A DNA stretch of 64,000 bases from Candidatus Bathyarchaeota archaeon (GCA_963828195.1 CAWHDT010000005.1:1-64000); one strand, 5' to 3'. Numbered from the stretch's first letter, positions 1 through 23,762 are shown. Made by a program: numbers and translations. The notes: generated by a model not told the origin, from the letters alone.

Positions 1-385
1 CGGTTTGGCGTCTATTCTTGGCCATAAGCTTCAAAAAATTCGCTTGATTAACCAGCTTTCCAGCAATAAACTTCTTCGCAAGAACCACGCTACGCTCATC
101 ATTATAAGCGATAAATTGTTCTCTTCTTGCCCTAACGGAGCCTGTTAAAGTTGCGGGCATCAATACAGCGTAAGGCCAGCCGCGATATTTGGCGAAGATT
201 ACTTGGATATTGTTCTCTGTAGCCAGTTCCAATGCGCTAGCTGAAAAAGCAACGCCTGAACAGCAGCAAATTATAGAATCAACGTCATCTGCCACTATCT
301 CTTTGATTTCCCCATTCTTCTTGACGCTAAAGCGATTTCTCTTCCTTCCCACGAAAATGCCGAAATCATCCAAAAACACATTCAT
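1..385 (-). CDS. cas1: CRISPR-associated endonuclease Cas1, N-terminal part (runs off window)
   Basis: Not in ORF track. Manual translation from ATG at 385: MNVFLDDFGIFVGRKRNRFSVKKNGEIKEIVADDVDSII...SASALELATENNIQVIFAKYRGWPYAVL...RARREQF...LAKKFIAGKLVNQ, a typical Cas1 N-terminus. Directly downstream of csa1. Confidence 0.92.
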   Translation of the reverse strand, partial: MNVFLDDFGIFVGRKRNRFSVKKNGEIKEIVADDVDSIICCCSGVAFSASALELATENNIQVIFAKYRGWPYAVLMPATLTGSVRARREQFIAYNDERSVVLAKKFIAGKLVNQANFLKLMAKNRRQT

Positions 386-401
386 GGCAGCATCAACCGC
401 T

Positions 402-1289
402 CTAGCCATAGCAGATGTTGTAGTATTGGCAGTACTCTTTGCACTGGGAACTCTCAGGCTTGCCAGGGTCTTTCCTCTCAGCTACAATTTCCAGTTTCTT
501 GTCTCTTTCCTCTATCCACCACTGTCTCAATTCATCATTGGCAAAAAAAAGGTCCTTCTGAACACTGATCTTACCGTTTTCAACGTTTAAGTAGACAGTA
601 CAACAAATGTCAACAGGTACTTCATGGATGCTTTCAAAAACAAGTGCGTAACCAACAGAGTAAAGCCTATGCCAATCTTCTTTTAAACTGGTAACTTTTA
701 GGTCAAACATGATGGTTCTAAGATAATCAAAACAATCCACACTAAGGATGTCGCTTAAGCCAAGCAGTTCACCAGAGAGTTTGTGCTCAACCAAAAAAGG
801 AACTGTTGTGCCTAGCAAATCCATCTCTGACGCATACGGCTGGCTGCAAGAAAGTTCTGCCAACTGGGCATCACACATTTTATGCATGAAATCCCAAACC
901 TGCCTACACTTATCAATAACGTTCTCAGGCTTTTCGCCAATTTCCTGCCACCTAACTTTCTGCCACCATGCATCAAAAGTTAGGTTCTGCCTTTGCCGAA
1001 AACTCTGCAAGCAATCGCTAATAATGCCATGAAATAATTTGCCCAAAGCCATCCGTGAACTCGGAGCCGCATACTTCTTTTCAATATTCCTCAGATACAC
1101 ATCCCGATTACTCGGGCAATATTTGGAGCTAACTTGATACATAGGTAACTTGATGTTGTCAAAATACGGTTTTAAGGGTGGTTGATGCCAATTCCAACCT
1201 CTAAGCTCTTTACTTACACCAACTTCTCTCGCGGTCGGCAAAAGCTGGTAGAGGAGTCGCTTCTGCTCTATGTCCGATAGAAAATACAA
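402..1289 (-). CDS. csa1: Type I-A-associated Cas4-family nuclease Csa1
   Basis: MYFL...ELRGWNWHQPPLKP, YCPSNRDVYL, VEHKLSGELLGLS, C-terminal CxxxCxYYxxC Fe-S cysteines; next to cas1 and the array. Confidence 0.92.
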   Translation of the reverse strand: MYFLSDIEQKRLLYQLLPTAREVGVSKELRGWNWHQPPLKPYFDNIKLPMYQVSSKYCPSNRDVYLRNIEKKYAAPSSRMALGKLFHGIISDCLQSFRQRQNLTFDAWWQKVRWQEIGEKPENVIDKCRQVWDFMHKMCDAQLAELSCSQPYASEMDLLGTTVPFLVEHKLSGELLGLSDILSVDCFDYLRTIMFDLKVTSLKEDWHRLYSVGYALVFESIHEVPVDICCTVYLNVENGKISVQKDLFFANDELRQWWIEERDKKLEIVAERKDPGKPESSQCKEYCQYYNICYG

Positions 1290-1425
1290 CCTTGGTCAAC
1301 CATCAAAACGACGTTATCCGATTATATTTATAAACTCAATGACGTTTCAATAATAATCGAGCCTATATATTCAGAGTCACATTCGAAATAAGCTCTAATC
1401 TGCGAATAAAGCCAAAATCGGCTCG
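1290..1425 (+). promoter_or_regulatory. CRISPR leader / divergent promoter region shared with csa1
   Basis: AT-rich 136 bp with TATA-like runs (TTTATAAA, TATATA) between the csa1 start and the first repeat; repeats end in ATTGAAAG on +. Confidence 0.7.
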
Positions 1426-1806
1426 GGTGCATGGAAAAATCCCAAGGAACGGGAATTGAAAGATTACCATCCAGCATCAAATCATACTCTGCAATTTCTG
1501 GTGCATGGAAAAATCCCAAGGAACGGGAATTGAAAGATGTATAGACTACATGCGCTAGTACTCAGATCAGTGGTGCATGGAAAAATCCCAAGGAACGGGA
1601 ATTGAAAGACTAGCATAGCTATGAGGTCGCGGCGAATGTACGTAGCTTATGCGAGGTAAGGTGCATGGAAAAATCCCAAGGAACGGGAATTGAAAGACGT
1701 ATGCCTATAAGATTCGGGTGCATGGAAAAATCCCAGGAACGGGAATTGAAAGTTGCCCGCATGCAGGATGGTGCATGGAAAAATCCCAAGGAACGGGAAT
1801 TGAAAG
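1426..1806 (+). CRISPR. CRISPR array: 6 repeats (37 bp GGTGCATGGAAAAATCCCAAGGAACGGGAATTGAAAG), 5 spacers of 37, 35, 51, 20 and 17 bp
   Basis: Repeats at 1426-1462, 1500-1536, 1572-1608, 1660-1696, 1717-1752 (one A deleted) and 1770-1806; TCCC/GGGA stem; 3' ATTGAAAG handle. Confidence 0.97.
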
Positions 1807-1828
1807 TGCTCTATGTAATGTGGCTTCT

Positions 1829-4564
1829 TTAGCTCAAAAGTTGTTTTTCTGCGATAGAGTAGTCTTCTTCTTTTCGGACTGTGTAAATCGTGTCGGCGAC
1901 GTCTTCTATTTCTGTATGGTGTGTAATTATGAGCATTTGTGGTATTATTCTGCCGCCTTCCCTGAAGAAAGAGCTGAGAATGTTCACAAGCTCCTTTCTT
2001 CTTTGCTCATCCAAGTGCGTTGTGGGTTCGTCCATTATGATGGTTTCGATTTTTCCTGACAATACTTGAGCAATAGCTAATCTAAGAGCAATCGCTAATG
2101 CTACCCGTTCACCCCCACTTATCTGGTCAATATCTTTCTCGCCACTTGCACCTATTACAGCGATATTATAATCATCATCGATTTTAATGTCGGAATAAGA
2201 AAGATTGAACCGTTCAAACAGGTCACGGGTAGACCTTTCAAGTAGAGGTCTAGCTCTTGCTCTGATTATCTTTTGTATTCCATCTTTTCCATAGGCATCT
2301 CTTATCTGGTTGAGTTTACCGATGAAAGTCTCAACCTTTTTCTTTTCTGCGGCTTTCTTTTCCAAAGCCCGTAGCTCTTCTTCGCATCTTCTTGCCTCTT
2401 CCTCAGCACTCGTTTTGGCTTGATTCAATTTGACGACTTCTTTCTCAAGACTACCCAGAGCATCCTTCTTTGAGTCATAAGCTACCTGTTGCTTTTCATG
2501 TTCTTTTTCCGAGTAGCCAAGCTTTTCAATTGCTTGAATCAAATCAGCGTATTTTCCGTTAACGATAGAAATCTCTTCTTTGGTTTTTTGCAAGATCGAC
2601 TCGTACTCAGTTTTCTTCATTGCAAGAGGTAGCTTTTGGTCATAGGTTTCTTTTTTATTTCGCAACTCCCGGAGTTCTTTTTGTGGCTCTTGAGATTTGT
2701 ATCCGAGCTTTTCCAAAGAAACATCGATTAATCCAGAAATATTGCCCAGTGCTTTAGTGATTGGCGTAATTTGTTTTTCAATTTCTTCCTGGGCAGGAAG
2801 CTTTTCTAGACGTCGCTTTGCCGAATCAAACTCTTGGTATGAGTCTTCAAGACTCTTTTTTCCGCCTTCTAGCTCTTCTATCGTTAGATCTATTTGTTTT
2901 AGAGCCTCTGCCTGTTGCTCAATCTCTTTAATCTCATTTTCTTGGAGCGTTATACGGCTCTTTGCTTCTTCAAACTCTGTAGCCAACGTTCTTATTCTCT
3001 CAGGGTCGATAGCGTCTACTTTCTTCGCTTTTCTTTTAGTCTGTTCCAAACTGTTGATTACTTCGTTCAACACGTTTTGAAGTTTTGATTTCTTGCTTTC
3101 CGATTCAATTTTCTCTAAAGAGTATTTGTTCACTAACTGATTGAGGCGCTCTGTAGTTAATTCGGCTTCACAGGTTGGGCAGCTTTTAATCTCCTCCTTG
3201 CTGCTCGCAAATTTTGAGAGGTTCTCATCTAAATCCTTCAAGCGCTGAGTCAGAACACTTATTATTCCATTTGTTTCAGAAGTTCTAGATTCGAGTTCTT
3301 GTACTGTTTTTTGATACTCTTGCTTTTTCCGTTCAAGAATAAGCTCAACGTTATCTATAGAAACTGGTTCATCTAGCGCTTTTGAAGCTTTTTCAAGATC
3401 CTTCTCTAAATTGCTTTGTTTGCTTATCTTTTCTTCAGCGATTTGCTTGAGCTGCTTCTTAGCTTTGGTTAACGATGCTTCAGCGCCTTCATAATTTTTG
3501 CGCTCTTTAAGTTTGTCAGCGATTAACTTTTCCTTTTCGAGATAGCCTTCATGGTCTTTCGCAGTGTCCTCTACTGCTTTTTTAAGCTGCTTTACTTCCT
3601 CTAATTTTGCTGAATATGAGGAGAGCGCTAATTCCTGTTTCTCTTTCTCTGTCAAATGGTCAATATAGTCTTCCAAGAAAGGCAATTGAGCAATAGAATT
3701 TTCTAGTTCCTTCACAACTTCCTCGGCTGCAACAGCCTGGCCAAGCTCTTCTTTTTCCCTTTGAAGCTTTTGCTTAAGGTTCTCGATATTGCCTTCAATT
3801 ACTCGTTTCTCTTTGTCATAGTTCTCAAATTGCTTTTTCGTATTTTTCAAGTCGTCCAAAACAGTCTGCAAGCATTTGAGTTCAGACTCAACTTCCGAAA
3901 GATTTTTCTTCTTTGAAGAAATTAGCGCTTCCAACTCTGCTGCCTTTGTTTCATAATCTCTCTTTGTTTTCTCAACTACCGGCTTCCGATCAAGCTCCGT
4001 TTTTAGCGCAATCTGTTTTTCTCGATATACCTGAATAACGCTTTTTATGCCTTCCCAAGCTATCTCAAGTTCTTCGACGCCTAGCAGTCTAGAAATAAGT
4101 TCTTTTCTGTCACCTGGCGTTGACGTGACAAGTTTTTCGATTTCACCTTGTCGGACATAAACAGACTGCATAAACATATTCTTGTCAAAGCCCAAAACCT
4201 TTTGAATCTCAGGAACGACAGAGCGCTCGCCGTCTTTAACAAGAAGCTTTCGCTGACCATCAACCGTCCGAAAAAGGCTGCCATGAGCAGACCCTTTTCG
4301 CTCAATAGACCATTCAGCATCGTAACTTATTCCAGCTTCAGTAAAGCATATTCCGACTTTGCATTTTTTGGCTCTGTCATTTATGAGTTTTTCTTTCTTT
4401 CCACGGTTACTATAGTCATTAAATAAAGCGAAGCTTATAGCGTCTAGAATACTAGTTTTGCCTGCTCCGTTAGGTCCTACAACAACGTTTATTCCATAAC
4501 CAAGGTCAATTTCAGTATTTTGGTGAGAAATGAAATTTTCAAGTTTGACCTTATTGAGAATCAT
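1829..4564 (-). CDS. rad50: DNA double-strand break repair ATPase Rad50
   Basis: Walker A GPNGAGKT, Q-loop VRQGEI, long coiled coil with central CPTC zinc hook, signature SGGE, Walker B IIMDEPT. Confidence 0.97.
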   Translation of the reverse strand: MILNKVKLENFISHQNTEIDLGYGINVVVGPNGAGKTSILDAISFALFNDYSNRGKKEKLINDRAKKCKVGICFTEAGISYDAEWSIERKGSAHGSLFRTVDGQRKLLVKDGERSVVPEIQKVLGFDKNMFMQSVYVRQGEIEKLVTSTPGDRKELISRLLGVEELEIAWEGIKSVIQVYREKQIALKTELDRKPVVEKTKRDYETKAAELEALISSKKKNLSEVESELKCLQTVLDDLKNTKKQFENYDKEKRVIEGNIENLKQKLQREKEELGQAVAAEEVVKELENSIAQLPFLEDYIDHLTEKEKQELALSSYSAKLEEVKQLKKAVEDTAKDHEGYLEKEKLIADKLKERKNYEGAEASLTKAKKQLKQIAEEKISKQSNLEKDLEKASKALDEPVSIDNVELILERKKQEYQKTVQELESRTSETNGIISVLTQRLKDLDENLSKFASSKEEIKSCPTCEAELTTERLNQLVNKYSLEKIESESKKSKLQNVLNEVINSLEQTKRKAKKVDAIDPERIRTLATEFEEAKSRITLQENEIKEIEQQAEALKQIDLTIEELEGGKKSLEDSYQEFDSAKRRLEKLPAQEEIEKQITPITKALGNISGLIDVSLEKLGYKSQEPQKELRELRNKKETYDQKLPLAMKKTEYESILQKTKEEISIVNGKYADLIQAIEKLGYSEKEHEKQQVAYDSKKDALGSLEKEVVKLNQAKTSAEEEARRCEEELRALEKKAAEKKKVETFIGKLNQIRDAYGKDGIQKIIRARARPLLERSTRDLFERFNLSYSDIKIDDDYNIAVIGASGEKDIDQISGGERVALAIALRLAIAQVLSGKIETIIMDEPTTHLDEQRRKELVNILSSFFREGGRIIPQMLIITHHTEIEDVADTIYTVRKEEDYSIAEKQLLS

Positions 4565-5706
4565 TGTAGTACCTCTTTTTGAAAGTATTCTTCAGCGACT
4601 TTCTTGGCTTCATCAATGTCCCTGTGTCGAAGATGACCCCACAATTCTAGCGCTAGCCCCGCCGTGTGTTCATCCTTGAAGTAATCTTGAATGACATTAT
4701 TGACTTGGAATGAACCTGGTTTTAGGTCCGGAAGCCTTTGTTCATTTTCCTCAACAATGTCTTGTCTAAAAGTGAGAACTCTTCCTGTTAAGGCAGATGT
4801 TAGAGTCTGATGAACATTCTGTCGATCAATGCTTTTGCCTTCAACAAGCACATGGATAATCGGCTGCTTTTCCATGCGCTCAACTTGCTTTACGAGAGAT
4901 TCTAGTTCACTCTCAAATCGCGAATAGTTCAGCCTAGCCTCAATCTGCGGTCTAATTCTTTCAATGTTGATATTTCGAACATCAACATCATCATTGTCAA
5001 AATCGACTATGTAAAAGCCTTTTCCAGTTTTTTGCCAGCCAGCAATCTCATCTCTTCTCAAGACTTCACTTGAACCAGGATAACCAAGTTCGCCTTTGCC
5101 AAATGAAGCTCGAATTCTTGTATGCAGGTGTCCCATTGCTAGATAATCAAAATTTTTTGGAAGCTCGTCCATGTGTAGCTCAAATGATCCTTCAAATGGT
5201 AGAAACTTGTCAATTCCCTCATGTAGCAAAAGAATACTAATCTTGCCATCAAACTTGAGAGTTGCAAGCTTCTTCATTTCTTCAACGAGAACGACACGAT
5301 AAGAGCGGGTTAGATTAGATAAACCTGCGACAACAACTTCTCTACCGCCAATGTTCAGTTGCTGTTGTTGTGCGCTCCCTCCTACCCCGAGGATTTGCAT
5401 TTGATCTTCAAAAAGTATGTGGGGAGCTATGCCTCTACTTTTGGGTCTGTCGTGGTCTCCAAGCACCGAAAAAATCTTTGTTTTTCCATCAAGCTTCTTC
5501 AAAAAATTCTTGAATGCACGATAAGCTTGCGGTGTGGGCCTTGGAGAATCAAAGAGATCCCCGCTATGAACTACGATATCTACGTGTTCCTCTAGAATTT
5601 TATCGCTGATTTCCTCTAATGCATCATAAATGTCTTTTTCTCGTTCATCCAAATTATATTGTTTGTACCCAAGGTGCGTATCAGCCAAATGAGCAATCCG
5701 AACCAT
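4561..5706 (-). CDS. mre11: DNA repair exonuclease Mre11
   Basis: Phosphoesterase motifs DTHLG, GDLFD, GDHD, GHLH, YPGS; overlaps rad50 start by 4 bp. Confidence 0.96.
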   Translation of the reverse strand: MVRIAHLADTHLGYKQYNLDEREKDIYDALEEISDKILEEHVDIVVHSGDLFDSPRPTPQAYRAFKNFLKKLDGKTKIFSVLGDHDRPKSRGIAPHILFEDQMQILGVGGSAQQQQLNIGGREVVVAGLSNLTRSYRVVLVEEMKKLATLKFDGKISILLLHEGIDKFLPFEGSFELHMDELPKNFDYLAMGHLHTRIRASFGKGELGYPGSSEVLRRDEIAGWQKTGKGFYIVDFDNDDVDVRNINIERIRPQIEARLNYSRFESELESLVKQVERMEKQPIIHVLVEGKSIDRQNVHQTLTSALTGRVLTFRQDIVEENEQRLPDLKPGSFQVNNVIQDYFKDEHTAGLALELWGHLRHRDIDEAKKVAEEYFQKEVLQ

Positions 5707-5717
5707 GACGAAGTCTC

Positions 5718-7337
5718 CTATTCACCTGGACCCATCAGGTCCTTCATTTCTCTACGCAGACGCTCGCCATCATTTTCCACAGTTTCTTCCCGGGACTTCT
5801 CAACGGCAGCCTTCATCTTACCAACAATATCTATATCGCTTCCGCCCTCCCTAGTTCTGCGTCGCTTCACTCTCACCATAACCGGAGCCCTTGTCATCTC
5901 GCCAACGAGCACAGCTTCACCAGTGTTAAGTCCAGGCAAATCTTCAAGCAGACTCTGCCCCAATCGCTCAGAACTCTTGGCAATTGCTAATTGATCATCA
6001 GGATTCGTCATGCGCATAACTATCTGGCTGTTGCATTGACTCAAAGCATCAGGATGAATTTTTGAAGGTCGCTGAGTAATCACGACAAGAAAGACACCAA
6101 ACTTTCTACCCTCTGCCGCAATTTTCTTTATAATTCTACTGGATTTTGTGTTACCCTGAAACGGAATAAAGCGATGCGCTTCTTCAACAAAAACAAAAAC
6201 GGGAAACTCAAATTCGCCGCTAGACGCCTTGTCATAAATGTCAGACAACAATCGGAATGCTATATAATCCGCGACCTCATCACTTAACCCTGAAAGATCG
6301 ACATCTGACAAATGCCTGGGCTTAAGTAAAGCATCAATATTAGTTGAAGCAGAAGTGAATACCTGCATTTTCACGATTTGCTTAATATATTTCTGGGCTG
6401 ATTTGGCACCCGCTATCTTACTTTTTTCTATTCCGCGGTCTTTCCAACTTTCAGCATTCTTTAACTCTTCGAGCAAATCTTCGGGCTGGAAAACCGCTTT
6501 ATCTGCTTTCAAATACTCAATTGCTTGTTCTAAACCATCTCGAATATTCAACATATTTTTACCGATATTAGCGATCAGGCAAATTTCTTCAACGTCCAAA
6601 TCCGAGAAACAAATCTCATAAGGCTCAACCTTGCCAACATCCCCAGCCGAGTACCGTCCAGTGCTTGCAGGGTTCCTAAACACAGTAATCCTGTCAGAAA
6701 GTTCATGTCTCTTCCCATCTGAATCTCTTCCCAAAAAAACATAATCCGCATGCGGGTCTAACATTACAATCGTGCCACCCTTGGCAAGCAATTCATCTGC
6801 AAGAATCCCTGCGAGATACGTTTTTCCCGAACCTGTCTGCGCTAAAAGCGCCAAATGCCTTCGAAAACCTTTAATCGAAAGCGCAACAGGAACCTCGCTA
6901 CGGGTAATTAAGCTGCCCACCCTAATTGCTTCATCCAAAGGATAAGAATAGAACGTTTCAAGCAACTCAGCAGGCGCAACATAAACAGGCTTACCTGGAA
7001 TAATTGCTTTTTTTGGCAACTGAAGCTCCCCGCTATCAGCCAGATAACCCAAAACCCTTGCTTTACCCCATACCTTACTATCTGCCAAACCCGCCTGTAT
7101 TATCTTCTTAATTATATCAAAATCCAGCTCTCTAGTCAAGGCCTGACTAGCAGACATTACCCTATCAATCTGAGCAACAATCTGAACAGGAATCAATTTC
7201 CCATCCTGCTCTTCTTCGGAATAAATCATCAAATACTCCCAACGCGATGGCATCTCACTTGGCTTAGATGAAAAATAAAACTCATTCGAACTAGCTTCAC
7301 CAACTATTACTCCAATTTCTTTAAGGGTACTTGACAC
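5718..7337 (-). CDS. herA: HerA helicase/translocase
   Basis: HAS-barrel-like N-terminus, RHLALLAQTGSGKT, VFVEEAH, EGRKFG, TQRPS, SQCN. Start placed at GTG 7337 behind a GGAGG SD (ORF track starts at 7445). Confidence 0.95.
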   Translation of the reverse strand: MSSTLKEIGVIVGEASSNEFYFSSKPSEMPSRWEYLMIYSEEEQDGKLIPVQIVAQIDRVMSASQALTRELDFDIIKKIIQAGLADSKVWGKARVLGYLADSGELQLPKKAIIPGKPVYVAPAELLETFYSYPLDEAIRVGSLITRSEVPVALSIKGFRRHLALLAQTGSGKTYLAGILADELLAKGGTIVMLDPHADYVFLGRDSDGKRHELSDRITVFRNPASTGRYSAGDVGKVEPYEICFSDLDVEEICLIANIGKNMLNIRDGLEQAIEYLKADKAVFQPEDLLEELKNAESWKDRGIEKSKIAGAKSAQKYIKQIVKMQVFTSASTNIDALLKPRHLSDVDLSGLSDEVADYIAFRLLSDIYDKASSGEFEFPVFVFVEEAHRFIPFQGNTKSSRIIKKIAAEGRKFGVFLVVITQRPSKIHPDALSQCNSQIVMRMTNPDDQLAIAKSSERLGQSLLEDLPGLNTGEAVLVGEMTRAPVMVRVKRRRTREGGSDIDIVGKMKAAVEKSREETVENDGERLRREMKDLMGPGE

Positions 7338-8667
7338 GTCTATAACTCCTCCCGCGTATAATCTTCTCCCCAAACATTTTCTCCATGTAAGGGAAGTAGA
7401 TATTATCAACGACTTTCTTCTTAAGCCTAACCCGTTCATCCACATTCTTCAACCAAAGATTATGGCAATCCAAACCGCCATAACCAGTAACCATAATATT
7501 CAACAGATCATCAACTTTTAGGTCAACGGGTTTAGGCCATCCTGTATTGGTAAATGTCTGATCCCAATAGGGTAAATCAACTCGTATAGGAGAATCACGA
7601 GCATCAAGCAAAAGATGTAAGGACACAATTCCGGGAAAAGTCGTAAAACTGGAAACAATATTTGACGCATATTTGACAAATTCTTGCCCCTTTTCTCTAT
7701 AAGTAACAGGGAAATACCTGCGCACATATCTTTCAGGATTATTACGACATAACTCAAAAAACCGAGACATCATCGGCGAAGGACCAAGCAGCAAAGGCTT
7801 CGTATACCCAGTAGACTCAGCAAGGCTCATAATTAGCTGATAATCTGGTCGCGAAGAAGTTAACTCTTCAAAAACCAAAGTTACCAACTCAAGATTATCT
7901 CCACATTTCTCCTTTAACTGTGAAAACTTCCTGAACGCAGATTCCTTAGCATTTTCCCCGCTCAGTAGCTCCAAGAACAAGGGCTTTAGTTTTTGAATAA
8001 TTACCGGATCTACTCGTGAACTTACGTTTCCAAGTTCTTCATCAAACAGAAGCCTCAGCAGATAATTACGATAAAAATCCGCACGGCTCTCCTTGCTCAC
8101 CCCAATAGGCACAATGCCCTTGCTCTTGCAAATTTCCAAAAACTCTCGAAAAGTCTGAAGATAATCAAGAAGTGTAAGCCTCTGCTCCTCAATCTTCGTT
8201 TCTATAGGTAAATGAACAGCTCGCCCATACAAAGAGCCATCAATCAAAACTCGACTGCATTCACAATCTTCCTTCAAAAAATTTAGGGCAACCTGAAACT
8301 CCAGCATCTCCATTTTCATGCTCACAAAACGCTGAGCATCAAGCAAACTGCCTTTAGTAAAAACTACATCTGTCTCCAGCAGTTTTCGAGTCTCATCCTT
8401 GCAAACTGCAAGCGATCTAACAACGTAAAAAATCCCTCCAGTAGAAAGAGGATTAGTATAGACGCTCGAATCAACTGCCGCTACCCCTAAATCACCGGGA
8501 TTTCCAGAAAAACTTTCCATATGGTCTATTTGAATCCAGTTCGAAAGAAAGTGCTTCTCTAATCTGTCGCGGAGAGGATTTGTCTTCCCCTCTAGCATCC
8601 GCTCCTTCATAATTCTCTCTTTCTTACTGAAGGAAGATGCAAACTCGCCGAGAAAATCTGGTGCCAA
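7321..8667 (-). CDS. nurA: NurA 5'-3' nuclease
   Basis: AAVDSS, MEMLE, LIDGSL, GVSKES motifs; first gene of the operon with herA, mre11 and rad50. Confidence 0.9.
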   Translation of the reverse strand: MAPDFLGEFASSFSKKERIMKERMLEGKTNPLRDRLEKHFLSNWIQIDHMESFSGNPGDLGVAAVDSSVYTNPLSTGGIFYVVRSLAVCKDETRKLLETDVVFTKGSLLDAQRFVSMKMEMLEFQVALNFLKEDCECSRVLIDGSLYGRAVHLPIETKIEEQRLTLLDYLQTFREFLEICKSKGIVPIGVSKESRADFYRNYLLRLLFDEELGNVSSRVDPVIIQKLKPLFLELLSGENAKESAFRKFSQLKEKCGDNLELVTLVFEELTSSRPDYQLIMSLAESTGYTKPLLLGPSPMMSRFFELCRNNPERYVRRYFPVTYREKGQEFVKYASNIVSSFTTFPGIVSLHLLLDARDSPIRVDLPYWDQTFTNTGWPKPVDLKVDDLLNIMVTGYGGLDCHNLWLKNVDERVRLKKKVVDNIYFPYMEKMFGEKIIRGRSYRRVKYP

Positions 8668-8770
8668 GACATCCCCTACTTGTCCATAGTGTTAGTTGAA
8701 ACAATATAAAAGATTTAGGAATCTATTGTCAATATTCTCTGATGACAGTATCCTCATGGATAACAAAAAA

Positions 8771-8817
8771 GTAGAGGAAAAGGTCCGCGTTAAAAAGGCA
8801 TGCGACGCCCGAATCTT
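8771..8817 (+). repeat. Repeat A, partial (3') copy
   Basis: gtccgcgttaaaaaggcatgcgacgcccgaatctt closely matches 12977-13011 (gtccgcgttacaaaggcatgcggcgcccgaatctt). Confidence 0.85.
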
Positions 8818-8977: not shown

Positions 8978-9412
8978 ATGGGGCTTTCTATGGCTAGTGT
9001 ATGGATGTTGTCTAAAGAGTCGATGAAGGGGATGGACATCGTATCAGTGTCCACGGATATCCTTTATGCTTTTGAACAATCGACTCGAGGTCAATTATCT
9101 CAGAAAGAACTCAACGAGAAGTGCCAAGAAGGACTAAACCTCTTATCTTTACTAAGCAACGCCGTGATTGCTCAAACGAAAGCAAAAACAGGAAAATCGG
9201 CAGACCTTTTTATGCTTAAAGTTGCTGAATCATTGGAAAAATCTATAGCTAAAACACCAACCCAGGTCCATGCAGATATTGATGAAGCAAAAAAAGAACT
9301 TGAAAGATGCAAGATAAGTTCAAAGACAATATGCCTACTTGAGCGAGTTTCTGATGTAGTCATGAACTTGACGTCCCGGAGCGTTGAAGAAATATCAACA
9401 TCTCTTCGGTAG
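8978..9412 (+). CDS. Hypothetical alpha-helical protein
   Basis: 144-aa ORF behind a TATA-like TTTAAG/TATATA; no recognisable motif. Confidence 0.7.
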   Translation: MGLSMASVWMLSKESMKGMDIVSVSTDILYAFEQSTRGQLSQKELNEKCQEGLNLLSLLSNAVIAQTKAKTGKSADLFMLKVAESLEKSIAKTPTQVHADIDEAKKELERCKISSKTICLLERVSDVVMNLTSRSVEEISTSLR

Positions 9413-9579: not shown

Positions 9580-10476
9580 GTGAGAAAAAACAGTCTTTGG
9601 CTGTGTGATACTGCTCTAAACTGGCTGCTCACGTTATACGGCAGATTTGAGAGTGTAGAAAAAAGAAGCCAGGACAGCAAGTGGATTGCACTGAACAATT
9701 TTGTTGCTAACTACTTAGGGGAATTTAAGTTTCTTTCAACACCGATGCCGCTCTTAGGCGATTCTTATTATTCTACTGGGTCTTTTCAATATTACAGAAA
9801 ACTTTCTTTAAGATTAACCAAGGAATATTATTTAGTATCCGTTGATTCTTCCGATTCTCCGATTTTTTGGCCTTTGGTGCTGCATGAGATGACTCACTGT
9901 TGGCTAGGTTCAAGTCATGTGGTAAATTCCATTTATGCCGCTCACAATAATGATCTGAACGGGTTAGATCGAGAAATTGCCGAAAACAGGATCGAAGAAG
10001 CATTGTGTGATTCGTTAGCTACATCTTTAATCGGGCCAGCGTACCCCTTTTCGTTTGTAAACAAGCTTTGGGCCCAATTCTCAAGGGAAGTTAGCAATTG
10101 GTATCCGACAAATGAATTTAGAATTGAATGCATGGCTAAGATTTTGGATGAACTGCAACTTACCGACGTAGCAAACGAGCTTAGGATGATTGTAAGTGAG
10201 AAATTCGCAAATTCGTGGAACAACGAAGAAATCGCTTGTGTAATTGATGATTTAGCTCAAACTACAAAAGAGTTTAGCCGGACACTTCCCAAGATAAGCT
10301 CAAAGATTTGTATCGAAGCAGAAAACGCATGTTCTACTTTGGATAAGTCACCACCAAGGGATATGCCAACCTTGTTTTTCTCATGTTGGATATTACTTGA
10401 TAAAATGGAACCCTCGGAGATACCCACTGGATTACACAATATCACAGATATTTTGCTGAAAGCTTTAAAATGGTGA
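9580..10476 (+). CDS. HExxH zinc-binding (metallopeptidase-like) protein; frame is open from 9388
   Basis: WPLVLHEMTHC plus downstream EEALCD...GPAY; no ATG/GTG/TTG between 9388 and 9580 although the frame is open. Confidence 0.7.
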   Translation: MRKNSLWLCDTALNWLLTLYGRFESVEKRSQDSKWIALNNFVANYLGEFKFLSTPMPLLGDSYYSTGSFQYYRKLSLRLTKEYYLVSVDSSDSPIFWPLVLHEMTHCWLGSSHVVNSIYAAHNNDLNGLDREIAENRIEEALCDSLATSLIGPAYPFSFVNKLWAQFSREVSNWYPTNEFRIECMAKILDELQLTDVANELRMIVSEKFANSWNNEEIACVIDDLAQTTKEFSRTLPKISSKICIEAENACSTLDKSPPRDMPTLFFSCWILLDKMEPSEIPTGLHNITDILLKALKW

Positions 10477-10583: not shown

Positions 10584-11486
10584 TCAACCATGAGAATCAG
10601 ACCTTAGCGTTTCCAAAACGGTTGCAACTAATTTCTTCTCTTTATGAGCTTTTGAATCATCGATTATCCTGATAAGTGTGCTATCCATTTCTTCCAGAAA
10701 CTCGTATGACTTGAGAACTTTTCCAATAACCGTCTCTTGGGAAGGTAAGTCTCCTCTCCTTACTAAGCGTTCAAGATCATTCCAGTCATATTTAGTCCCT
10801 GATATATTATTGAGGAGATCTTTTGGTCTGAAGGGTTCTCTAACACTCCAGCATTTGATGACAGCAAGTTTTTGTACTCGGTGTTTGTCAAAGTGTCTAT
10901 CTGCAAACAGGTATAGGTCGTACAAATCGCGGGGTCGGAACCTCTGATATGCAGCCCGCAACTTCTCTGCCAATAACTCCTCTTTTTGAAGGCACCCCAC
11001 AGGAAACCGGGGAAATTCAGTGTACTTAAAATACATCTCATCCAACAAAGGCAACGCCTCAAGAGGTAACAGCGGTTTTTCACGGAAGCTTACTTCAAAC
11101 ATGAATTTTGCAGTGTTCCAAGCATGAGAATAGCTTATGACCGCTATGTAGGATTGCTCGCACGCCTCTGCTCCTTTCCGAACATTCTCCTCTGAAATCT
11201 TGAATTCTATGCCGAAATAGCTGCGCTTGTCCAGCAGCTTCTTAAGGTCAGATTGAAGGTCATCTAAGGAAATGCTTTGACTTGTAAAGTCAAGGTCCTC
11301 CGAGAATCTACCGGTACTCTCAAAATGTATTTTCTTTAAGCATGTACCACCCTTAAACGCCAACTTTTGTAAAATATCGTCAGATAAAACTTTTAAGACA
11401 TAGGTTAGGACTATATCGCGTTCTGCCACTTCTAAGGGCACTCTGCTAGAACGAGCATAGAATGTCACATACTTTTTGTCCAGCAT
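10584..11486 (-). CDS. abiEii: AbiEii/AbiGii-family nucleotidyltransferase toxin (type IV TA)
   Basis: ERD...L, FKGGTCLKK, RFSEDLDF, AEKLRA, RPRDLYDL. Confidence 0.93.
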   Translation of the reverse strand: MLDKKYVTFYARSSRVPLEVAERDIVLTYVLKVLSDDILQKLAFKGGTCLKKIHFESTGRFSEDLDFTSQSISLDDLQSDLKKLLDKRSYFGIEFKISEENVRKGAEACEQSYIAVISYSHAWNTAKFMFEVSFREKPLLPLEALPLLDEMYFKYTEFPRFPVGCLQKEELLAEKLRAAYQRFRPRDLYDLYLFADRHFDKHRVQKLAVIKCWSVREPFRPKDLLNNISGTKYDWNDLERLVRRGDLPSQETVIGKVLKSYEFLEEMDSTLIRIIDDSKAHKEKKLVATVLETLRSDSHG

Positions 11487-11493
11487 TTTCTTC

Positions 11494-12729
11494 TCACCTT
11501 ACCTCAATCTCGCTGAGTAACTGTTCTCTTGGCACGTTATCGATGACTCTCCAGTCATTAGAAAACGAGCCTGTCTTTAGCCTTCGGGAATCAAGATAAA
11601 TCGGAGTGTTTCCCACATGCCTAAGCAGCAAGCCTCTATGATCGGAAGCTAACGGTTGAACCAAACCCTCTTTTGAAAGAGAATCGACAACAAAGCCAAG
11701 CCTCTGAACCAAAGCATGCGATTCCATCCTGACAGCGTAATCCACCAACTTACCCTCATCAACCTTTGCTAAACCCCGCCATGTAATCCTTGCCAACTGC
11801 TCAACCCCACCCGCATAATGTGGCTTATCAAAAGAATCCACAATAGCCTTCTCAGGCTCAGCTAAACAAACCTCAGCATCAAACGCCCTTTCAAAACGGT
11901 AGCCAAAGAACTTACGTTTGGATAAAGTTACAAACTTGAAAGCGACGCTTTGCCACTCAACCTTTGGCTTCTTCTTTGTAGTAGCAATAAACAGAGTGAA
12001 CGGCATCTGAGTAGTAAATCCATAATGACTGTTAGCCGTGTAATAGCTGAAGTAATAGGGCTCAACCAAAGCAGCCCCTACAGCAAAAGAGTTAGCAGGA
12101 GGAATCTTTTCAGGGTAACCATAAGCCGCTGGAACAAACTGATAAAGACCCGTGGTTATCCGCTCAAGCCATTGTTTTCGCTCAAGATTATGAAGCAAAA
12201 CGTAAGCATAATTAGCGGAACAACGCAAAGCATCCTGAACATCCTTCGCTCGGATTACAGTCTTCTTCTCAACCTCCCACATGGCCGCCAATTTGGCTTC
12301 CTCTGGCGAGAGTCTCCTATCTTGAAACTGGTTCTGCTCCTCTCTAACCGCTTCAAGTTCAGCTCGAGTTATTCCAAGGTCTTCAAAAGTAACCAAACGA
12401 ATAGGCAATCCGCCAAGCGCTTTCATGGCTGACGTTTCAAATTCAGGACCAACGACTATTAACTCAAACTTTTCAAGTGGAGGCTCTAAGTTAGACAGGG
12501 CGGAATACAGGTTTAGAATTTTGCTTAGGCTACCGCGGCCTATTTTGTGCATCGTCACTTCCACAAAGACATCTATTCCAGCCTTATCCTTGAAATGAAA
12601 ATCAATTCTAATTCTGCCAGGTAGTTGTTCATCTGTGGCAACGAGCTTATGTTCGCCAAAGGCTTTGATTAGTTGCCTTGAAACAAACGCTTCTACACCG
12701 TGCTCCAAATAGTTCACCACTATTATCAT
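11494..12729 (-). CDS. abiEi: AbiEi-family antitoxin with extra N-terminal restriction-endonuclease-like domain
   Basis: wHTH (L.RKQWLERITTGLY), YFSYYTANSHYGFTTQ, EPEKAIVD, QRLGF; extra ~130-aa N-terminus containing RIDFHFKD...FVEVT. Confidence 0.88.
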   Translation of the reverse strand: MIIVVNYLEHGVEAFVSRQLIKAFGEHKLVATDEQLPGRIRIDFHFKDKAGIDVFVEVTMHKIGRGSLSKILNLYSALSNLEPPLEKFELIVVGPEFETSAMKALGGLPIRLVTFEDLGITRAELEAVREEQNQFQDRRLSPEEAKLAAMWEVEKKTVIRAKDVQDALRCSANYAYVLLHNLERKQWLERITTGLYQFVPAAYGYPEKIPPANSFAVGAALVEPYYFSYYTANSHYGFTTQMPFTLFIATTKKKPKVEWQSVAFKFVTLSKRKFFGYRFERAFDAEVCLAEPEKAIVDSFDKPHYAGGVEQLARITWRGLAKVDEGKLVDYAVRMESHALVQRLGFVVDSLSKEGLVQPLASDHRGLLLRHVGNTPIYLDSRRLKTGSFSNDWRVIDNVPREQLLSEIEVR

Positions 12730-12892
12730 TCGCCGATTAAGTATTATAATTTTTTCTTTTTATCTTAGCATTATACAGAAAATCATTAAGACTTTAAGAA
12801 ATAAATATTTTGCGTAGTTTATTGTAACGTTTTATCAGCCATTATTTTCCAGAAACATTTTATAAGTGTCCATCAGGATGAGTTTTAGTGGA

Positions 12893-13015
12893 TGAAGGCA
12901 TCTTAAGTTCGCGTGTCCAGCGGGTCGCGGGGTCTCCAGAGTTCCTTCGGGAATTACCCTTGCGGTAAGAGGCAACGTCCGCGTTACAAAGGCATGCGGC
13001 GCCCGAATCTTTGCT
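12893..13015 (+). repeat. Repeat A full copy 1 (TATA-like CTTAAG plus structured 56-nt core 12927-12982); candidate ncRNA or recombination site
   Basis: Aligns with 17141-17267; core differs at 5/56 positions; GUUCC-UUCG-GGAAU hairpin. Confidence 0.85.
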
Positions 13016-13106
13016 CAAGCTCTTTTACTTAATCTGTTTCTCTGTTCAAAGTGTAGTTTACCTATTCATGCTGAGAATGCGATTTGTTGTGGAGCGTACC
13101 AGTTAT

Positions 13107-13907
13107 TTATAGCGATAAGCCCTTGAGGAAAAAGTTAACTCGTTGATATGCATCAGTTCTTGCATTTTCAGAACCAATAAATCTAGCCACTGCGCTTGGG
13201 CCTTGGGAAATCATCGAGCCAAAGCCTTCTCTGAGTTCAATTATTGCATTAATCGTTGTTTTCTCTGTTCCTTTTCCTTTTAGCGCAGCCATGAACGCTT
13301 CAGAAGCTTGCTTAGGTCCTGTTCCGTAGAAACCCGCTACGCTGTAAATGTCATAGCTGTCTTTATCTTTCAGCCTGTACAAAGCGAGACCTTTCATAGT
13401 TAACGATGCAACAATGTTTGCACAATAAAGCTTCGCCGAAGCTAAACCATTACCAGGCATAATCGCGCTCAGCTCAACCTCAAAATTTTGGTCAAACACT
13501 ATCCCGCAACCTTCGATAACGCATGCTTTGAGATCAGCTTGAACCGAAGTTAACCACTCGCCAGGCAATCTTTTTGCACCTTCAGGCTCAGTTAAAAAAT
13601 CTACTTCAATCTTGTAACTAATCCCACTACTGGAAGAAACCACATGTCTTTCAAAACGAAATATGCTTCCAGTAGCCGCATATCCCAACCTTTCCAGAAT
13701 CTGTTTAATGTTTTCATATCGCTCAACAATAGAAGGTCTCAAAACAAAATCAATATCAATAGAACCGCAATGGTCAAAGTAGCCCCTTGTCAAAAAATAT
13801 GGTGCCCAGCCTCCTGCAAGAACCATATCATTTTTGTATTGTCGAAGAGCTCGGCATAGCTCAACTAAAACACCTTTCGAAGTTTCAGTTGCATCACGAT
13901 CATACAT
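13107..13907 (-). CDS. Pol-beta-like nucleotidyltransferase (putative type IV TA toxin)
   Basis: VLAGGWAP...GSIDIDF, MKGLAL..RLKDKDSYDIY; overlaps the upstream AbiEi-like gene. Confidence 0.82.
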   Translation of the reverse strand: MYDRDATETSKGVLVELCRALRQYKNDMVLAGGWAPYFLTRGYFDHCGSIDIDFVLRPSIVERYENIKQILERLGYAATGSIFRFERHVVSSSSGISYKIEVDFLTEPEGAKRLPGEWLTSVQADLKACVIEGCGIVFDQNFEVELSAIMPGNGLASAKLYCANIVASLTMKGLALYRLKDKDSYDIYSVAGFYGTGPKQASEAFMAALKGKGTEKTTINAIIELREGFGSMISQGPSAVARFIGSENARTDAYQRVNFFLKGLSL

Positions 13908-14571
13908 TCTGAACTGCCTCTTTTTTATGCCATTCTTTAAGCAGTACTTCTAAGAGTTGAGAAGCAGCCTCTTCGCCTCTTGCTGGAATATTATAAAGAT
14001 CAACGTAAAGCTGCACGTTAGACACAACCTTAACCCCTCGGACTTCATACGCTCCATAAAAAACGCCTTCATCGTAGGGCAAAACGAATTTTACGTTTCC
14101 GCCACTTGGTGTGGGATTTAATTCTAGCTTTTTTGCAAACTGGGAAGCTATGTCTAAAGAGGGAATATAGAGGTGCACGTCAACAGGTCGCACGTAAGGC
14201 GCTACAAGCCAAGCGCCGGCTAAACCTGAAAGAGCATATTTCAAATCGACCTCGGCAATTTTCTGCACGAACTGATCTATCTCTTTCTCAAAAGTGTAGT
14301 ATTCTAAGAATTTATTCGCGCGGTTATAGTCGCTGTAAGCTGCCCATCGTCTTAGCAATCGCATGGGGTCTACGATGACTATTCGGTTCCGCTTATCTCT
14401 TGCAACAAAGCCTAACTCAATAAGCGTTTTGCAAACATAATGCACCAATCCGTTTGACACTTGGGCCTCTGCAGCAAGTTCCCTCTCGTCCCAATCTCTG
14501 CCAAGAGTTACCAATAACACACGCAGAATCCTAGAGGATTTAGGCGCGAAGACATTTTTGACCTCAGACAT
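13900..14571 (-). CDS. wHTH + AbiEi-like (DUF2186/AbiEi_2-type) antitoxin
   Basis: N-terminal wHTH (RELAAEAQVSNGLVH), YALSGLAGAWLVAP, GGNV...PYDEGVF, VSNVQLYVDL...RGEEAA. ATG 14571 preferred over TTG 14601. Confidence 0.85.
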   Translation of the reverse strand: MSEVKNVFAPKSSRILRVLLVTLGRDWDERELAAEAQVSNGLVHYVCKTLIELGFVARDKRNRIVIVDPMRLLRRWAAYSDYNRANKFLEYYTFEKEIDQFVQKIAEVDLKYALSGLAGAWLVAPYVRPVDVHLYIPSLDIASQFAKKLELNPTPSGGNVKFVLPYDEGVFYGAYEVRGVKVVSNVQLYVDLYNIPARGEEAASQLLEVLLKEWHKKEAVQNV

Positions 14572-14595
14572 GTAGTTGCCTTCTAAAACAACGTT

Positions 14596-14678
14596 GCTCA
14601 ATGGGCTATATAAATGCTCAATGTTATTGAGCTAATTTTCTGCTCAACCACACTTATATATGCTCAACACTATTGAGC
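14596..14678. promoter_or_regulatory. Duplicated operator/promoter: GCTCAA-N5-TTGAGC palindromes plus half sites
   Basis: Palindromes at 14616-14632 and 14662-14678; half-sites at 14596 and 14642 (46-bp periodicity); TTTATATA on - at 14607-14614. Confidence 0.7.
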
Positions 14679-15286: not shown

Positions 15287-16234
15287 ATGAGATGCACAGA
15301 CTCTGAATATGCTTTCAGCAAGTCAGAATTGCAAATACTTAGAGAACTCTCTAAGGGAAAGCAATCCCTTCCAGAGATTAGAAAATCACTTTTGCTTAAA
15401 CCAGCGCTTCTTTCTTATAACTTAAAAAAATTACAGAAGAAAGTGCTGATCCAAACAACTGAAGAAGGAAACAGGAAATACGCATGCTTCAGCGAAACAA
15501 GTCATGCAGAACTGCTAAGAGACCTGTTGATTAGGTTCGATCATGTGGATTGGGAAAATATTCTAACGGGAAAAACAATCGATATTCTTTTCCAAGCCCT
15601 CAGCGCAAAAGAGGGAAATTTATCAGGTTTTTCCAATGCTACACTTTGGCGTTATCTAAAGGAACTAAGAGGAAGAGGCATTATTGGAGAGACTCAAAAA
15701 AGGTACCAAATTAACTCGCGCTTCCAAGTCCTCATAGACTTTCTAAAGGAATACCAACGGTATTTTGTTAACAAAATTTCTAAAACCCTCTCAGTGAAAA
15801 CGGTCATTCTTTGGCAAGAAGGCATGGAATTTCTGGTTAGGGCACCCAAAGCTGCGAAGCCGATATGTGAAGACTTCCACAAAACTGCCACCTCAATATT
15901 TGCTCAATATGATCTTCCGCTTTTTTCAGAATTTGACATCTACTTCTACTCAACAAGCAGAAGATCAATCAAACCTGAGGATGCAATACTGCATACGCTT
16001 CTTGTAGAACCTGGCAATGTGCGATACACAACTTACGCTCTTTTGCTGCTCAAAAAAACGCAGAAGGAAATCGACAAAACATATTTGCTCAAGGAAGCTG
16101 AAAGTTTTGGGCTCAAGAATCAAATAGTCGGTATGCTTGAATTCTTAGAGACTCACAGGCGACCAGAAGGTCAATCACTGCCTACTTGGAACGAATTTAT
16201 CACAAAAGCAAATGATTACGCGGTGATAGCCTGA
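15287..16234 (+). CDS. Tandem wHTH regulator / putative antitoxin
   Basis: N-terminal ArsR/MarR-like wHTH and a second wHTH (SNATLWRYLKEL..RGI); TGA/ATG overlap with the downstream nucleotidyltransferase. Confidence 0.78.
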   Translation: MRCTDSEYAFSKSELQILRELSKGKQSLPEIRKSLLLKPALLSYNLKKLQKKVLIQTTEEGNRKYACFSETSHAELLRDLLIRFDHVDWENILTGKTIDILFQALSAKEGNLSGFSNATLWRYLKELRGRGIIGETQKRYQINSRFQVLIDFLKEYQRYFVNKISKTLSVKTVILWQEGMEFLVRAPKAAKPICEDFHKTATSIFAQYDLPLFSEFDIYFYSTSRRSIKPEDAILHTLLVEPGNVRYTTYALLLLKKTQKEIDKTYLLKEAESFGLKNQIVGMLEFLETHRRPEGQSLPTWNEFITKANDYAVIA

Positions 16235-17082
16235 TGGCTCAAAGGCGCTCCTTTGATAAGAACTATCTCAATCAAGAATTCGATAAGGTAAACGCAACAG
16301 CAAAACAGACCCTTACACTTTATCTCGTAGGCGGAGGAGCCATGGCATTCTACGGTCTAAAAGCCGCTTCAAAAGACATAGACATAATCCTCACCAGCCA
16401 AGGCGACCTGACCAACCTGCAAACAATTCTTGAAGAAATAGGCTACAAAGAGCCAAACCCTGTTCTTGTCACTAGAGCATACAATAAAATGCAAACCAAC
16501 GCCATATTGGAAAATCAAGACGGCTTCAGATGGGACCTGTTCCTGAAAACAGTCTGTAACGCCCTCACGCTATCTGCTGAGATGCAGAAGAGAGCAACCT
16601 CACTCTATCAAGGTAACTTCCTAAAGGTCCTCATTGCTTCAAAAGAAGACCTCTTCTTGTTCAAAGGAATAACCGAACGGGAAGCTGATTTAGATGATAT
16701 GCGAATACTTGCACAATCAGGACTCTACTGGGAAACGATAAGCCAAGAATGTAGACGCCAATCTGAAGTTTCAGGCGTTTGCTGGGAAGGCGCACTCTAC
16801 CAAAACCTGCTAGATCTTAAAGAAAAATATGGCATTGAATCTCCAATTGAAAAATCCCTTAGAAAAGTTGCTGAACGAAAGATTATTGAAACAACGCTGC
16901 TTGGGCAAATCCAAAAGGGAAACCACACCGTCAAAATAATCGCTCAAGAAATCAAGGAGCCGCAAAACTTCATCAGGGAAGAACTTAAAGGATTAGCGGA
17001 CAGGGGACTAATTAGAATGGATAGATCAAGCAAACCTCATAAATTCTTCCTCAATGAAAAACCAACTAAAAATAAAAGGTGA
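16234..17082 (+). CDS. Nucleotidyltransferase (DUF6036-like) with C-terminal wHTH
   Basis: YLVGGGAM...SKDIDII, DLFLFKGITEREADLDD; C-terminal wHTH (IAQEI...IREELKGL.DRGLI). Confidence 0.82.
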   Translation: MAQRRSFDKNYLNQEFDKVNATAKQTLTLYLVGGGAMAFYGLKAASKDIDIILTSQGDLTNLQTILEEIGYKEPNPVLVTRAYNKMQTNAILENQDGFRWDLFLKTVCNALTLSAEMQKRATSLYQGNFLKVLIASKEDLFLFKGITEREADLDDMRILAQSGLYWETISQECRRQSEVSGVCWEGALYQNLLDLKEKYGIESPIEKSLRKVAERKIIETTLLGQIQKGNHTVKIIAQEIKEPQNFIREELKGLADRGLIRMDRSSKPHKFFLNEKPTKNKR

Positions 17083-23698: not shown

Positions 23699-23762
23699 TC
23701 AAAACGTCGGTTGCGTTGTAACAGCGCAGATAAACGCGTTTGTATCTACGAATCGGGGTCAC
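23699..23762 (-). pseudogene. Truncated, frameshifted VapC (PIN) toxin
   Basis: GTGA overlap with the antitoxin stop, extra C, then RFVDTNAFICAV...TGA (PIN first-strand motif xFVDTN). Confidence 0.6.

Follow-up and report, generated by a model that had tools for sequence, protein, structure and literature searches.

An extra nurA-herA-mre11-rad50 operon, exchanged between Bathyarchaeia species and meeting a type I-A-like CRISPR array tail to tail

We analyzed a 64,000-nt stretch of DNA (the window) from a Bathyarchaeia genome (Candidatus Bathyarchaeota archaeon, GCA_963828195.1, here G000), in which the DNA end-resection genes nurA, herA, mre11 and rad50 lie beside a clustered regularly interspaced short palindromic repeats (CRISPR) array and CRISPR adaptation genes. 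The window comprises positions 1-64000 of contig C5 (CAWHDT010000005.1), and its first base is the start of this 954-kb contig, one of nine in the assembly. Six open reading frames (ORFs), all on the minus strand, fill positions 1-8667: a cas1 fragment, csa1, rad50, mre11, herA and nurA. The last four (1829-8667) form the complete operon that the initial annotation had recognized. They encode Rad50 (1829-4564, 911 aa; NF002244, 352 bits) and Mre11 (4561-5706, 381 aa; Metallophos, 55 bits; NF041031, 284 bits), both of a type termed accessory here, HerA (5718-7445, up to 575 aa; DUF87 [PF01935], 124 bits; NF040819, 219 bits) and NurA (7321-8667, 448 aa; PF09376, 47.7 bits, above the cut-off of 21). 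Because the longest herA ORF overlaps nurA by 125 nt, the true herA start probably lies further in. A conserved region upstream of nurA (8668-8813, minus strand; 90-93% identity to the related loci L025 and L040) is the presumed operon promoter.

The CRISPR side of the locus consists of an array of six 37-nt direct repeats between csa1 and rad50 (1426-1806, plus strand), an AT-rich region that combines the CRISPR leader with the divergent csa1 promoter (1290-1425, plus strand; TATA-like TTTATAAA, with a promoter-like site on both strands), and two adaptation genes. The product of csa1 (402-1289, minus strand) is a Cas4-family nuclease of type I-A adaptation modules (PF06023, 256 bits; TIGR01896, 185 bits, above the cut-off of 103; PADLOC Cas4/Cas4a). 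The cas1 gene (2-409, minus strand; PF01867, 85 bits; TIGR00287, 73.3 bits) is a fragment encoding the N-terminal 136 aa, since contig C5 begins where the window does; the complete cas1 of L040 matches it at 93-94% identity. The rest of cas1 and any cas2, cas4 or effector genes of this cas locus were not found in the nine contigs of G000, and no csa3 gene was found. A 22-bp trailer (1807-1828), identical in L040, separates the last repeat (ending at 1806) from the rad50 stop codon (1829-1831). The contiguous layout first described, with six minus-strand genes and a rad50 stop 22 bp from a repeat, is therefore accurate apart from the truncation of cas1 by the contig start.

The array itself does not run along the minus strand with the genes, to judge from the polarity of its repeats. 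On the plus strand each repeat ends in ATTGAAAG, after a 5-bp stem (TCCC...GGGA); the leader with its TATA-like box adjoins csa1, at the array end away from rad50; and the rad50 end carries an imperfect repeat and the short spacers (spacer lengths are 37, 35, 51, 19 and 17 nt, and repeat 5 has a 1-nt deletion). Because of the repeat 3' end, the position of the leader and the imperfect repeat and short spacers by rad50, we read the array on the plus strand toward rad50, so that csa1-cas1 are predicted to diverge from the leader and the operon to converge on the array trailer. In Pyrobaculum, CRISPR RNA reads begin 8 nt before the spacer, according to the available text of PMC3396285. This start fits an 8-nt handle from the 3' end of the window repeat. 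On the minus (operon) strand, every repeat reads as a short hairpin followed by TTTTT. Archaeal RNA polymerase is stopped by oligo-T tracts, and there are 6 terminator-like sites in the array on the operon strand compared with 0.6 expected in shuffles; the first repeat on the rad50 side probably ends the operon transcript. The leader is 81% identical to that of L040, and its core is conserved in a further genome (G185, contig C4). Spacers 1 and 2, the only two compared, had no match in viral_contigs by exact matching.

Three of the four resection proteins (Rad50, Mre11 and HerA) carry the hallmarks of their families. Rad50 has a Walker A motif (GPNGAGKT, residues 30-37), a Q-loop (Q140), a CPTC zinc hook (466-469), the SGGE signature (821), Walker B (IIMDE) and an H-loop (TH), and its top NCBIfam match is the Rad50 model NF002244, at a score under the cut-off of 847. 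Mre11 has motifs DTHLG, GDLF, GDHD and GHLH and matches M. jannaschii Mre11 (PDB 3av0) over residues 4-375 (E = 8e-54), while its NF041031 score is under the NCBIfam equivalog cut-off of 500. Motif III is GDHD in 27/27 accessory sequences, with Asp for the canonical Asn; it is GNHD in Methanobacteriota and GSHD in the vertically inherited Mre11 of Bathyarchaeia (21/21: L006 and L104-L123). HerA exceeds the PF01935 cut-off of 23 and has a P-loop (AQTGSGKT) and Walker B motif (FVFVEEAH); its NF040819 score also lies under the NCBIfam cut-off. The NurA match to PF09376 covers only profile positions 3-169 of 254, and no match to PDB sequences was obtained at E ≤ 0.1; DSS and DGS motifs are visible, which may hold the catalytic residues. 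The catalytic motifs of Rad50, Mre11 and HerA are intact, and the operon genes appear functional.

The window operon is an extra copy and not the housekeeping set. G000 keeps vertically inherited Mre11-Rad50 and HerA-NurA: a second mre11 (401 aa) with a short rad50 (695 aa) is located at C3:23411-26700 (L006), and a second pair, herA-like (488 aa) and nurA-like (359 aa), at C8:1592-4134. At E ≤ 1e-40, C3-type Mre11 occurs in 11/11 same-genus, 23/27 same-family and 66/201 class genomes, with identity dropping from 85% to 44% with taxonomic distance; C8-type HerA occurs in 113/201 class genomes and is likewise graded by distance. These two vertical-type genes are adjacent in several genomes, and each of the six genomes that both carry the operon and were sampled for HerA retains vertical HerA. 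Window-type Mre11 was found in 2/24 other same-genus genomes (71-92% identity) and, at E ≤ 1e-60, in 15/401 class genomes (G000 included) and 13/220 high-quality genomes; the named relatives that carry it are Bathyarchaeia of peat, bog and soil. The initial annotation had suspected that this was not the housekeeping copy and had named a search for a second set, with a tree against vertical orthologs, as the way to find out; the second set exists and the two kinds of Mre11 form distinct clades (see below), so that the opposite case, an only and vertically inherited copy, does not hold.

The vertical set has features of its own. Its Rad50 has only 695 aa, with a CPLC hook near residue 364, and its Mre11 sits on a long branch, apart from other archaeal Mre11. 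The vertical herA-nurA pair was present in only 3/11 sampled genomes of the window's genus, which suggests repeated loss.

For phylogenetic placement we built a maximum likelihood tree of 70 Mre11 sequences (LG+G4; support from Shimodaira-Hasegawa-like approximate likelihood ratio tests only). All 27 accessory sequences from Bathyarchaeia group in a single clade (support 100), sister to Archaeoglobaceae plus Methanocellales (support 99) and nested within archaeal Mre11 in general. Far from it, the 21 vertical sequences group together (support 100) and branch in line with class, order, family and genus. Within the genus of the window, accessory copies appear in at least two places in the tree, one with the window, L024 and L025, and one in which L026 groups with L032. 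Compared with G000, vertical and accessory Mre11 identities are 89% and 71% for G016, 81% and 90% for the genome of L025, 77% and 92% for G020, and about 73% and 98% for the genome of L040. Because these rankings run in reverse, we conclude that the operon has been transferred horizontally.

The DNA around the operon leads to the same conclusion. Operon DNA is 93% identical to the window in L025 and 95-98% in L040, while the flanks of these two loci match other parts of G000 at 72-79%. Homology to L025 spans exactly window positions 1825-8813, with the L025 flanks mapping to C2 and C5:787-789 kb, and upstream of nurA homology to both L025 and L040 stops at 8812/8813, with none past that point. 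Since 1825-8813 is conserved while the flanks map elsewhere at 72-79%, the operon was recently exchanged between species. The extra operon is thus a discrete block of about 7 kb, rare and horizontally exchanged between species.

We collected 80 loci from genome_contigs with an Mre11 profile, of which 27 are Bathyarchaeia operon loci; each of the 27 has the gene order nurA-herA-mre11-rad50 over the part that its contig covers. Repeats beside rad50 were sought by blastn-short and local alignment within 600 bp at these 27 loci and within 800 bp at 58 metagenome loci (three of which duplicate genome loci, with six pairs near-identical). In the clade of the window the rad50-array junction is present in 5/5 assessable loci (the window, L040, L025, L124 and L125), L024 ending inside rad50. 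In L040, rad50 is followed by the same 22-bp trailer, 30 repeats, the leader, csa1, cas1, cas2, cas4 and a convergent Cas3 helicase gene, where the locus ends; the L040 repeat differs by one base from that of the window, and the two arrays have zero spacers in common. On the metagenome contigs L124 and L125 (Rad50 95% and 93% identical), rad50 runs straight into arrays of at least 11 repeats. L025 has two repeats directly after rad50, followed by a truncated enolase gene and no cas genes; this two-repeat remnant (L025 13918-15195) abuts a split enolase gene that lacks its first ~33 residues, and looks like the scar of a deletion that removed the cas genes.

Outside this clade, L026 carries a single complete repeat 47 bp past rad50, L151 a 12-repeat array 134 bp after rad50, L142 a repeat-like match after rad50 (score 20 versus a null maximum of 13), and L041 a 4-repeat array 1.3 kb from rad50, behind one methylase gene. 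All four belong to the repeat family of the window and share its orientation. Nothing above the null was found within 600 bp of rad50 at the other 23/27 genome loci (L041 among them) or within 800 bp at 54/58 metagenome loci, and the 20 vertical Mre11-Rad50 control loci had no repeat of this family. Linkage to CRISPR in relatives, which had been put forward as a check, is therefore kept throughout the window's clade and recurs as an array or remnant in L026, L041, L151 and L142, but most loci lack it, and one genome (G108) carries the two modules apart. Arrays of other repeat families lie within 0.3-1.3 kb of mre11 in Methanobrevibacter (L076 10-280; L085 36-364) and Methanoxibalbensis (L060 12432-14659).

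The cas module has a history of its own. Between the window and L040, the operon and trailer are 95-98% identical in DNA, whereas leader, csa1 and cas1 are 81-84% identical, with the break inside the array. The opposite pattern is seen with G197, in which Csa1 (85%) and Cas1 (87%) are closer to the window than Mre11 (62%) and Rad50 (49%). Because identities differ between the same genome pairs, operon and cas genes have separate divergence histories, and the suggestion that both were co-mobilized as one unit is not supported by the L040 comparison. G185 and G108 carry an array-leader-csa1-cas1-cas2-cas4 module, and G197 has a matching array-leader-csa1 contig; the contigs of G197 and G185 break off inside rad50, or at or within the array. 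In G108 the cas module and the operon are on different contigs, and the 3.3 kb beyond the trailer hold no operon gene. The repeat family is widespread, and its arrays probably serve as crossover sites in the exchange of blocks.

Tests of functional coupling gave little. The type I-A adaptation genes in the window are csa1 and the cas1 fragment, along with leader and array; cas2, cas4 and a Cas3 helicase gene are seen in the relative L040, and the same module in G185, G197 and G108. Csa1 occurs in 54/401 class genomes, 4/15 with the operon versus 50/386 without it (Fisher p = 0.13); since genomes of this kind frequently lack assembled arrays and cas loci, this co-occurrence counts neither for nor against coupling. 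A comparison of the csa1/leader region with the region upstream of nurA found no excess of common 8-11-mers over shuffled sequences. In an RNA-library run (X20; contigs only), pieces 90-99% identical fall on rad50, mre11, herA, nurA and one repeat, with DNA carry-over possible; there are no pieces on csa1 or cas1, and uncovered parts prove nothing. These contigs are a weak hint that the operon is transcribed in a relative of 90-99% identity. In a DNA run (X1; contigs only), the depth of csa1/cas1 variants is 20-44 and that of the operon 5 or less. Contig depth is a poor measure, but the difference hints at additional, more abundant organisms that carry the cas module. G000 itself has a third cas1 (352-aa frame) at C9:85556-88958, with cas2-like and cas3-like matches, and a k-mer scan of G000 found no array for it.

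The neighborhood of the operon was compared across loci within 4 kb on each side, with genes counted as defense by Pfam labels (Cas; BREX [bacteriophage exclusion]; AbiE; DNA methylase/restriction; MNT-HepT). Synteny is almost absent around the operon: the 176 ORFs that flank it at 31 loci form 155 clusters. Vertical Mre11-Rad50 loci, by comparison, have conserved neighbors, with a zf-AN1/M50 peptidase gene in at least 12 loci and the gene for ribosomal protein S10. At least one defense or toxin-antitoxin gene lies within 4 kb at 12/32 operon loci versus 0/20 vertical loci (Fisher p = 0.001 by loci; p = 0.008 when 8/28 distinct contexts are counted). The 12 loci (the window, L025, L032, L035, L036, L037, L040, L041, L043, L044, L051 and L056) represent 8 distinct contexts. 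By enrichment relative to the core-gene control, the operon tends to reside in defense islands. The operon stands beside BREX-type genes in three loci: L043 has BrxL and a PglX-like methylase, L056 (Promethearchaeota) has BrxA/B/C, and L032 (G016, C5:478-498 kb) has an Eco57I-type methylase, a kinase with HD_assoc and an SNF2 helicase.

Defense cassettes do continue on the far side of the window operon, as the initial annotation had it. Two AbiEii/AbiEi toxin-antitoxin pairs of the abortive-infection type occupy 10584-14601 (minus strand; PF08843, PF09952 and the PADLOC AbiEii/AbiEi models), and a toxin-antitoxin-like pair of an HVO_2833_C protein and a DUF6036 nucleotidyltransferase occupies 15287-17082 (plus strand), where the variable stretch ends. 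Two plus-strand ORFs, 8978-9412 (144 aa) and 9580-10476 (298 aa), separate the nurA promoter from the first AbiE pair; neither has a match in Pfam, NCBIfam or PADLOC, and the 1.8-kb stretch that holds them is absent in L025 and L040, where an AbiE pair lies directly before nurA. From ~17.9 kb onward the genes are ordinary (aquaporin, DUF2252). In the right flank only the aquaporin and DUF2252 genes align with relatives, at the background identity of 78-79%, and no long collinear match was found in five relatives. Because there is no collinear right flank and the left flank is missing, the insertion site could not be defined. Dispersed short repeats at 23540-23720 and 24130-24500 have 9 and 22 blastn matches, respectively, across the G000 contigs and also match many times in same-genus genomes; they may be miniature mobile elements.

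Several known systems resemble this locus in part. The herA-mre11-rad50-nurA operon of thermophilic archaea is the canonical double-strand-break repair operon (Constantinesco et al. 2004, as cited in the available parts of PMC3396285 and PMC13748450). The window operon clusters the same four families with nuclease and ATPase motifs intact. It differs in gene order, which is nurA-herA-mre11-rad50 at the 27 Bathyarchaeia operon loci; in being a second copy, laterally exchanged and present in 15/401 genomes; in its host, a mesophilic peat/soil lineage as judged by record titles and run labels; and in its proteins, which score under the NCBIfam equivalog cut-offs and have GDHD and not GNHD as Mre11 motif III.

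CRISPR-associated nurA-csm6-herA paralogs in Pyrobaculum and relatives were proposed to act in adaptation (2012, PMC3396285), and the available sections of that paper report the cluster, which has csm6 and is without mre11-rad50, as vertical and always array-linked in its genus. Like it, the NurA-HerA set of the window is paralogous to the repair copy and lies beside a CRISPR array; unlike it, the window operon has all four genes, patchy array linkage and horizontal exchange. No csm6 or CARF gene was found in the window operon, which places it outside the nurA-csm6-herA group. Csa3a of Sulfolobus islandicus binds and activates the nurA/herA promoters together with csa1-cas1-cas2-cas4, and a RecBCD-like role was proposed (Liu et al. 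2017, PMC5587795, from the portion of the article available). As with RecBCD/AddAB and the Csa3a regulon, an end-resection machine is here a proposed source of fragments for Cas1-Cas2 and a type I-A adaptation module is involved. Coupling in Sulfolobus, as far as the source's available text describes it, works through a shared regulator of dispersed housekeeping genes, whereas here it consists of the physical adjacency of an extra copy.

SIR2-HerA is reportedly a HerA-based anti-phage system of bacteria. The window operon resembles bacterial HerA anti-phage systems in pairing a HerA-family ATPase with a nuclease partner and in residing in defense islands. Unlike anti-phage HerA, the window HerA scores 219 bits on the repair model versus 116 and 88 on anti-phage HerA models, and its partners are NurA and Mre11-Rad50, not SIR2 or DUF4297. 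Bacterial NurA-HerA degrade viral DNA, as stated in the accessible part of a NurA review (PMC13748450). Our literature search, with subscription journals outside its coverage, turned up no publication that describes an additional operon of these four genes, either in Bathyarchaeia or in defense islands.

The reading we favor, with a probability of roughly 65%, is that of an accessory, mobile end-resection module that lives in defense islands and has made lineage-specific, tail-to-tail contact with a type I-A-like array. In such a module, Mre11-Rad50 would find and trim DNA ends and the HerA ring would drive DNA into NurA. A copy in the flexible genome would most likely act on foreign or damage-derived DNA ends, in a RecBCD-like manner. 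It might yield, as a by-product rather than a proven dedicated task, fragments that the neighboring Cas1-Cas2-Cas4/Csa1 could use, and the array repeats would probably both terminate the operon transcript and act as crossover points in block exchange. A general anti-invader or specialized repair role in the flexible genome appears more likely than a dedicated adaptation role.

A number of points weigh against this reading. It draws on homology and neighborhood for function. The defense contrast involves kin loci that are not independent, lets Pfam labels define what defense is, and takes as its control a core gene and not a random accessory gene; 20/32 operon loci are without a recognized defense gene within 4 kb, and several sit among core genes (proteasome, exosome, glycolysis). 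The Mre11 tree was made by a quick method. Identity among accessory copies still declines roughly with taxonomic distance, being 63-92% in the genus, 57-70% in the family, 54-56% in the order and 52-53% in other orders; part of the accessory distribution is thus accounted for by an old presence followed by many losses. G108 and G208 are without vertical-type Mre11 at E ≤ 1e-40, and there the "accessory" operon may be what the cell uses for repair. In L040, the 98%-identical relative, mre11, rad50 and the start of nurA are split by frameshifts (L040 10001-13880), which may reflect long-read assembly error or operon decay. Finally, arrays (at least 3 repeats, within ~10 kb) were found at 2/27 of the operon loci versus 5/53 Mre11 loci of other archaea; what is unusual about the junction arrays is their position, orientation and repeat family, not their raw frequency.

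The competitor that survives best, unlikely as we hold it to be, is a plain repair paralog, i.e., a redundant or condition-specific homologous-recombination set without a defense role, which transfer has put in the variable regions where defense genes and arrays gather. The proteins are indeed closest to canonical archaeal repair proteins (PDB 3av0; the NCBIfam Mre11, Rad50 and HerA repair models are the top matches), the accessory clade nests among ordinary archaeal Mre11, the loci without a defense neighbor are the majority just given, and the two genomes named above appear to rely on the accessory operon alone. Moreover, the vertical set is atypical in its short Rad50 and its GSHD motif, so that a canonical set could add real repair capacity. 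A repair paralog leaves unexplained, however, why repeats of one family and in one orientation stand directly after rad50 in at least four separate branches, and why defense-flanked loci number 12/32 versus 0/20, with the proviso that the latter control compares an accessory with a core gene.

More doubtful is a dedicated CRISPR accessory, the archaeal equivalent of RecBCD/AddAB; this would be an ancestral part of the type I-A locus that travels with it and makes or trims prespacers or else repairs the array following integration. The operon family would then be a genuine CRISPR-associated module of Bathyarchaeia type I-A, first joined to the array trailer and spreading with or into such loci; like RecBCD, it would break down linear DNA of invaders and pass the pieces to Csa1-Cas1-Cas2-Cas4, and lone repeats after rad50 would be scars of the linkage, reused as terminators. 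For this speak the architecture common to the window and L040 (operon, antisense array, leader and csa1-cas1-cas2-cas4, with cas2-cas4 in L040); the same-family repeats directly after rad50 in L025, L124, L125, L026, L151 and L142, and behind a methylase gene in L041, in one orientation and in both major accessory branches; the matching array-leader-csa1 contigs of G197 and G185 that end at or in the array; and the precedents of the Csa3a regulon, in which nurA/herA are activated alongside adaptation genes, and of the Pyrobaculum paralogs. Against it stand the absence of a repeat by rad50 at 23/27 genome loci (the L041 array being 1.3 kb off) and 54/58 metagenome loci, the presence of Csa1 in few operon genomes (p = 0.13), the separate contigs of G108 (modules at least 3.3 kb apart), unequal divergence (cas 81-84% versus operon 95-98% for L040, and the reverse for G197, with csa1 at 85% and Rad50 at 49%), transcription of operon and array that would converge through terminator-like repeats, the lack of a shared upstream motif, and other neighbors that are BREX, AbiE and restriction-modification rather than CRISPR genes. 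The dedicated prespacer generator of the initial annotation is thus not supported by the weak Csa1 co-occurrence and the missing shared promoter motif, and a dedicated adaptation role for the operon, while possible, is improbable. That the 7-kb block is cargo of an integrated plasmid or virus, serving its replication or recombination, is very improbable despite the sharp homology borders at 1825 and 8813, the differing insertion contexts and the toxin-antitoxin pairs alongside, because the flank ORFs scanned (E ≤ 1e-6) gave no integrase, transposase or replication family and the window has no tRNA gene; a transposon or provirus was rejected on the same scan.

For an accessory end-resection module of defense islands, the wider meaning lies in two areas. 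The source of prespacers for archaeal CRISPR is still open: bacteria use RecBCD/AddAB, and NurA-HerA of Sulfolobus are implicated only via a shared regulator. A separately inherited, full resection operon that recurs by type I-A arrays and by BREX, AbiE and restriction genes is a concrete candidate for that source, and since repair genes of the cell's own are retained, work on the extra set need not be confounded by essential repair. The locus also indicates that a textbook "housekeeping" repair operon can move laterally as cargo of the flexible genome, which matters for annotating repair capacity in uncultivated archaea.

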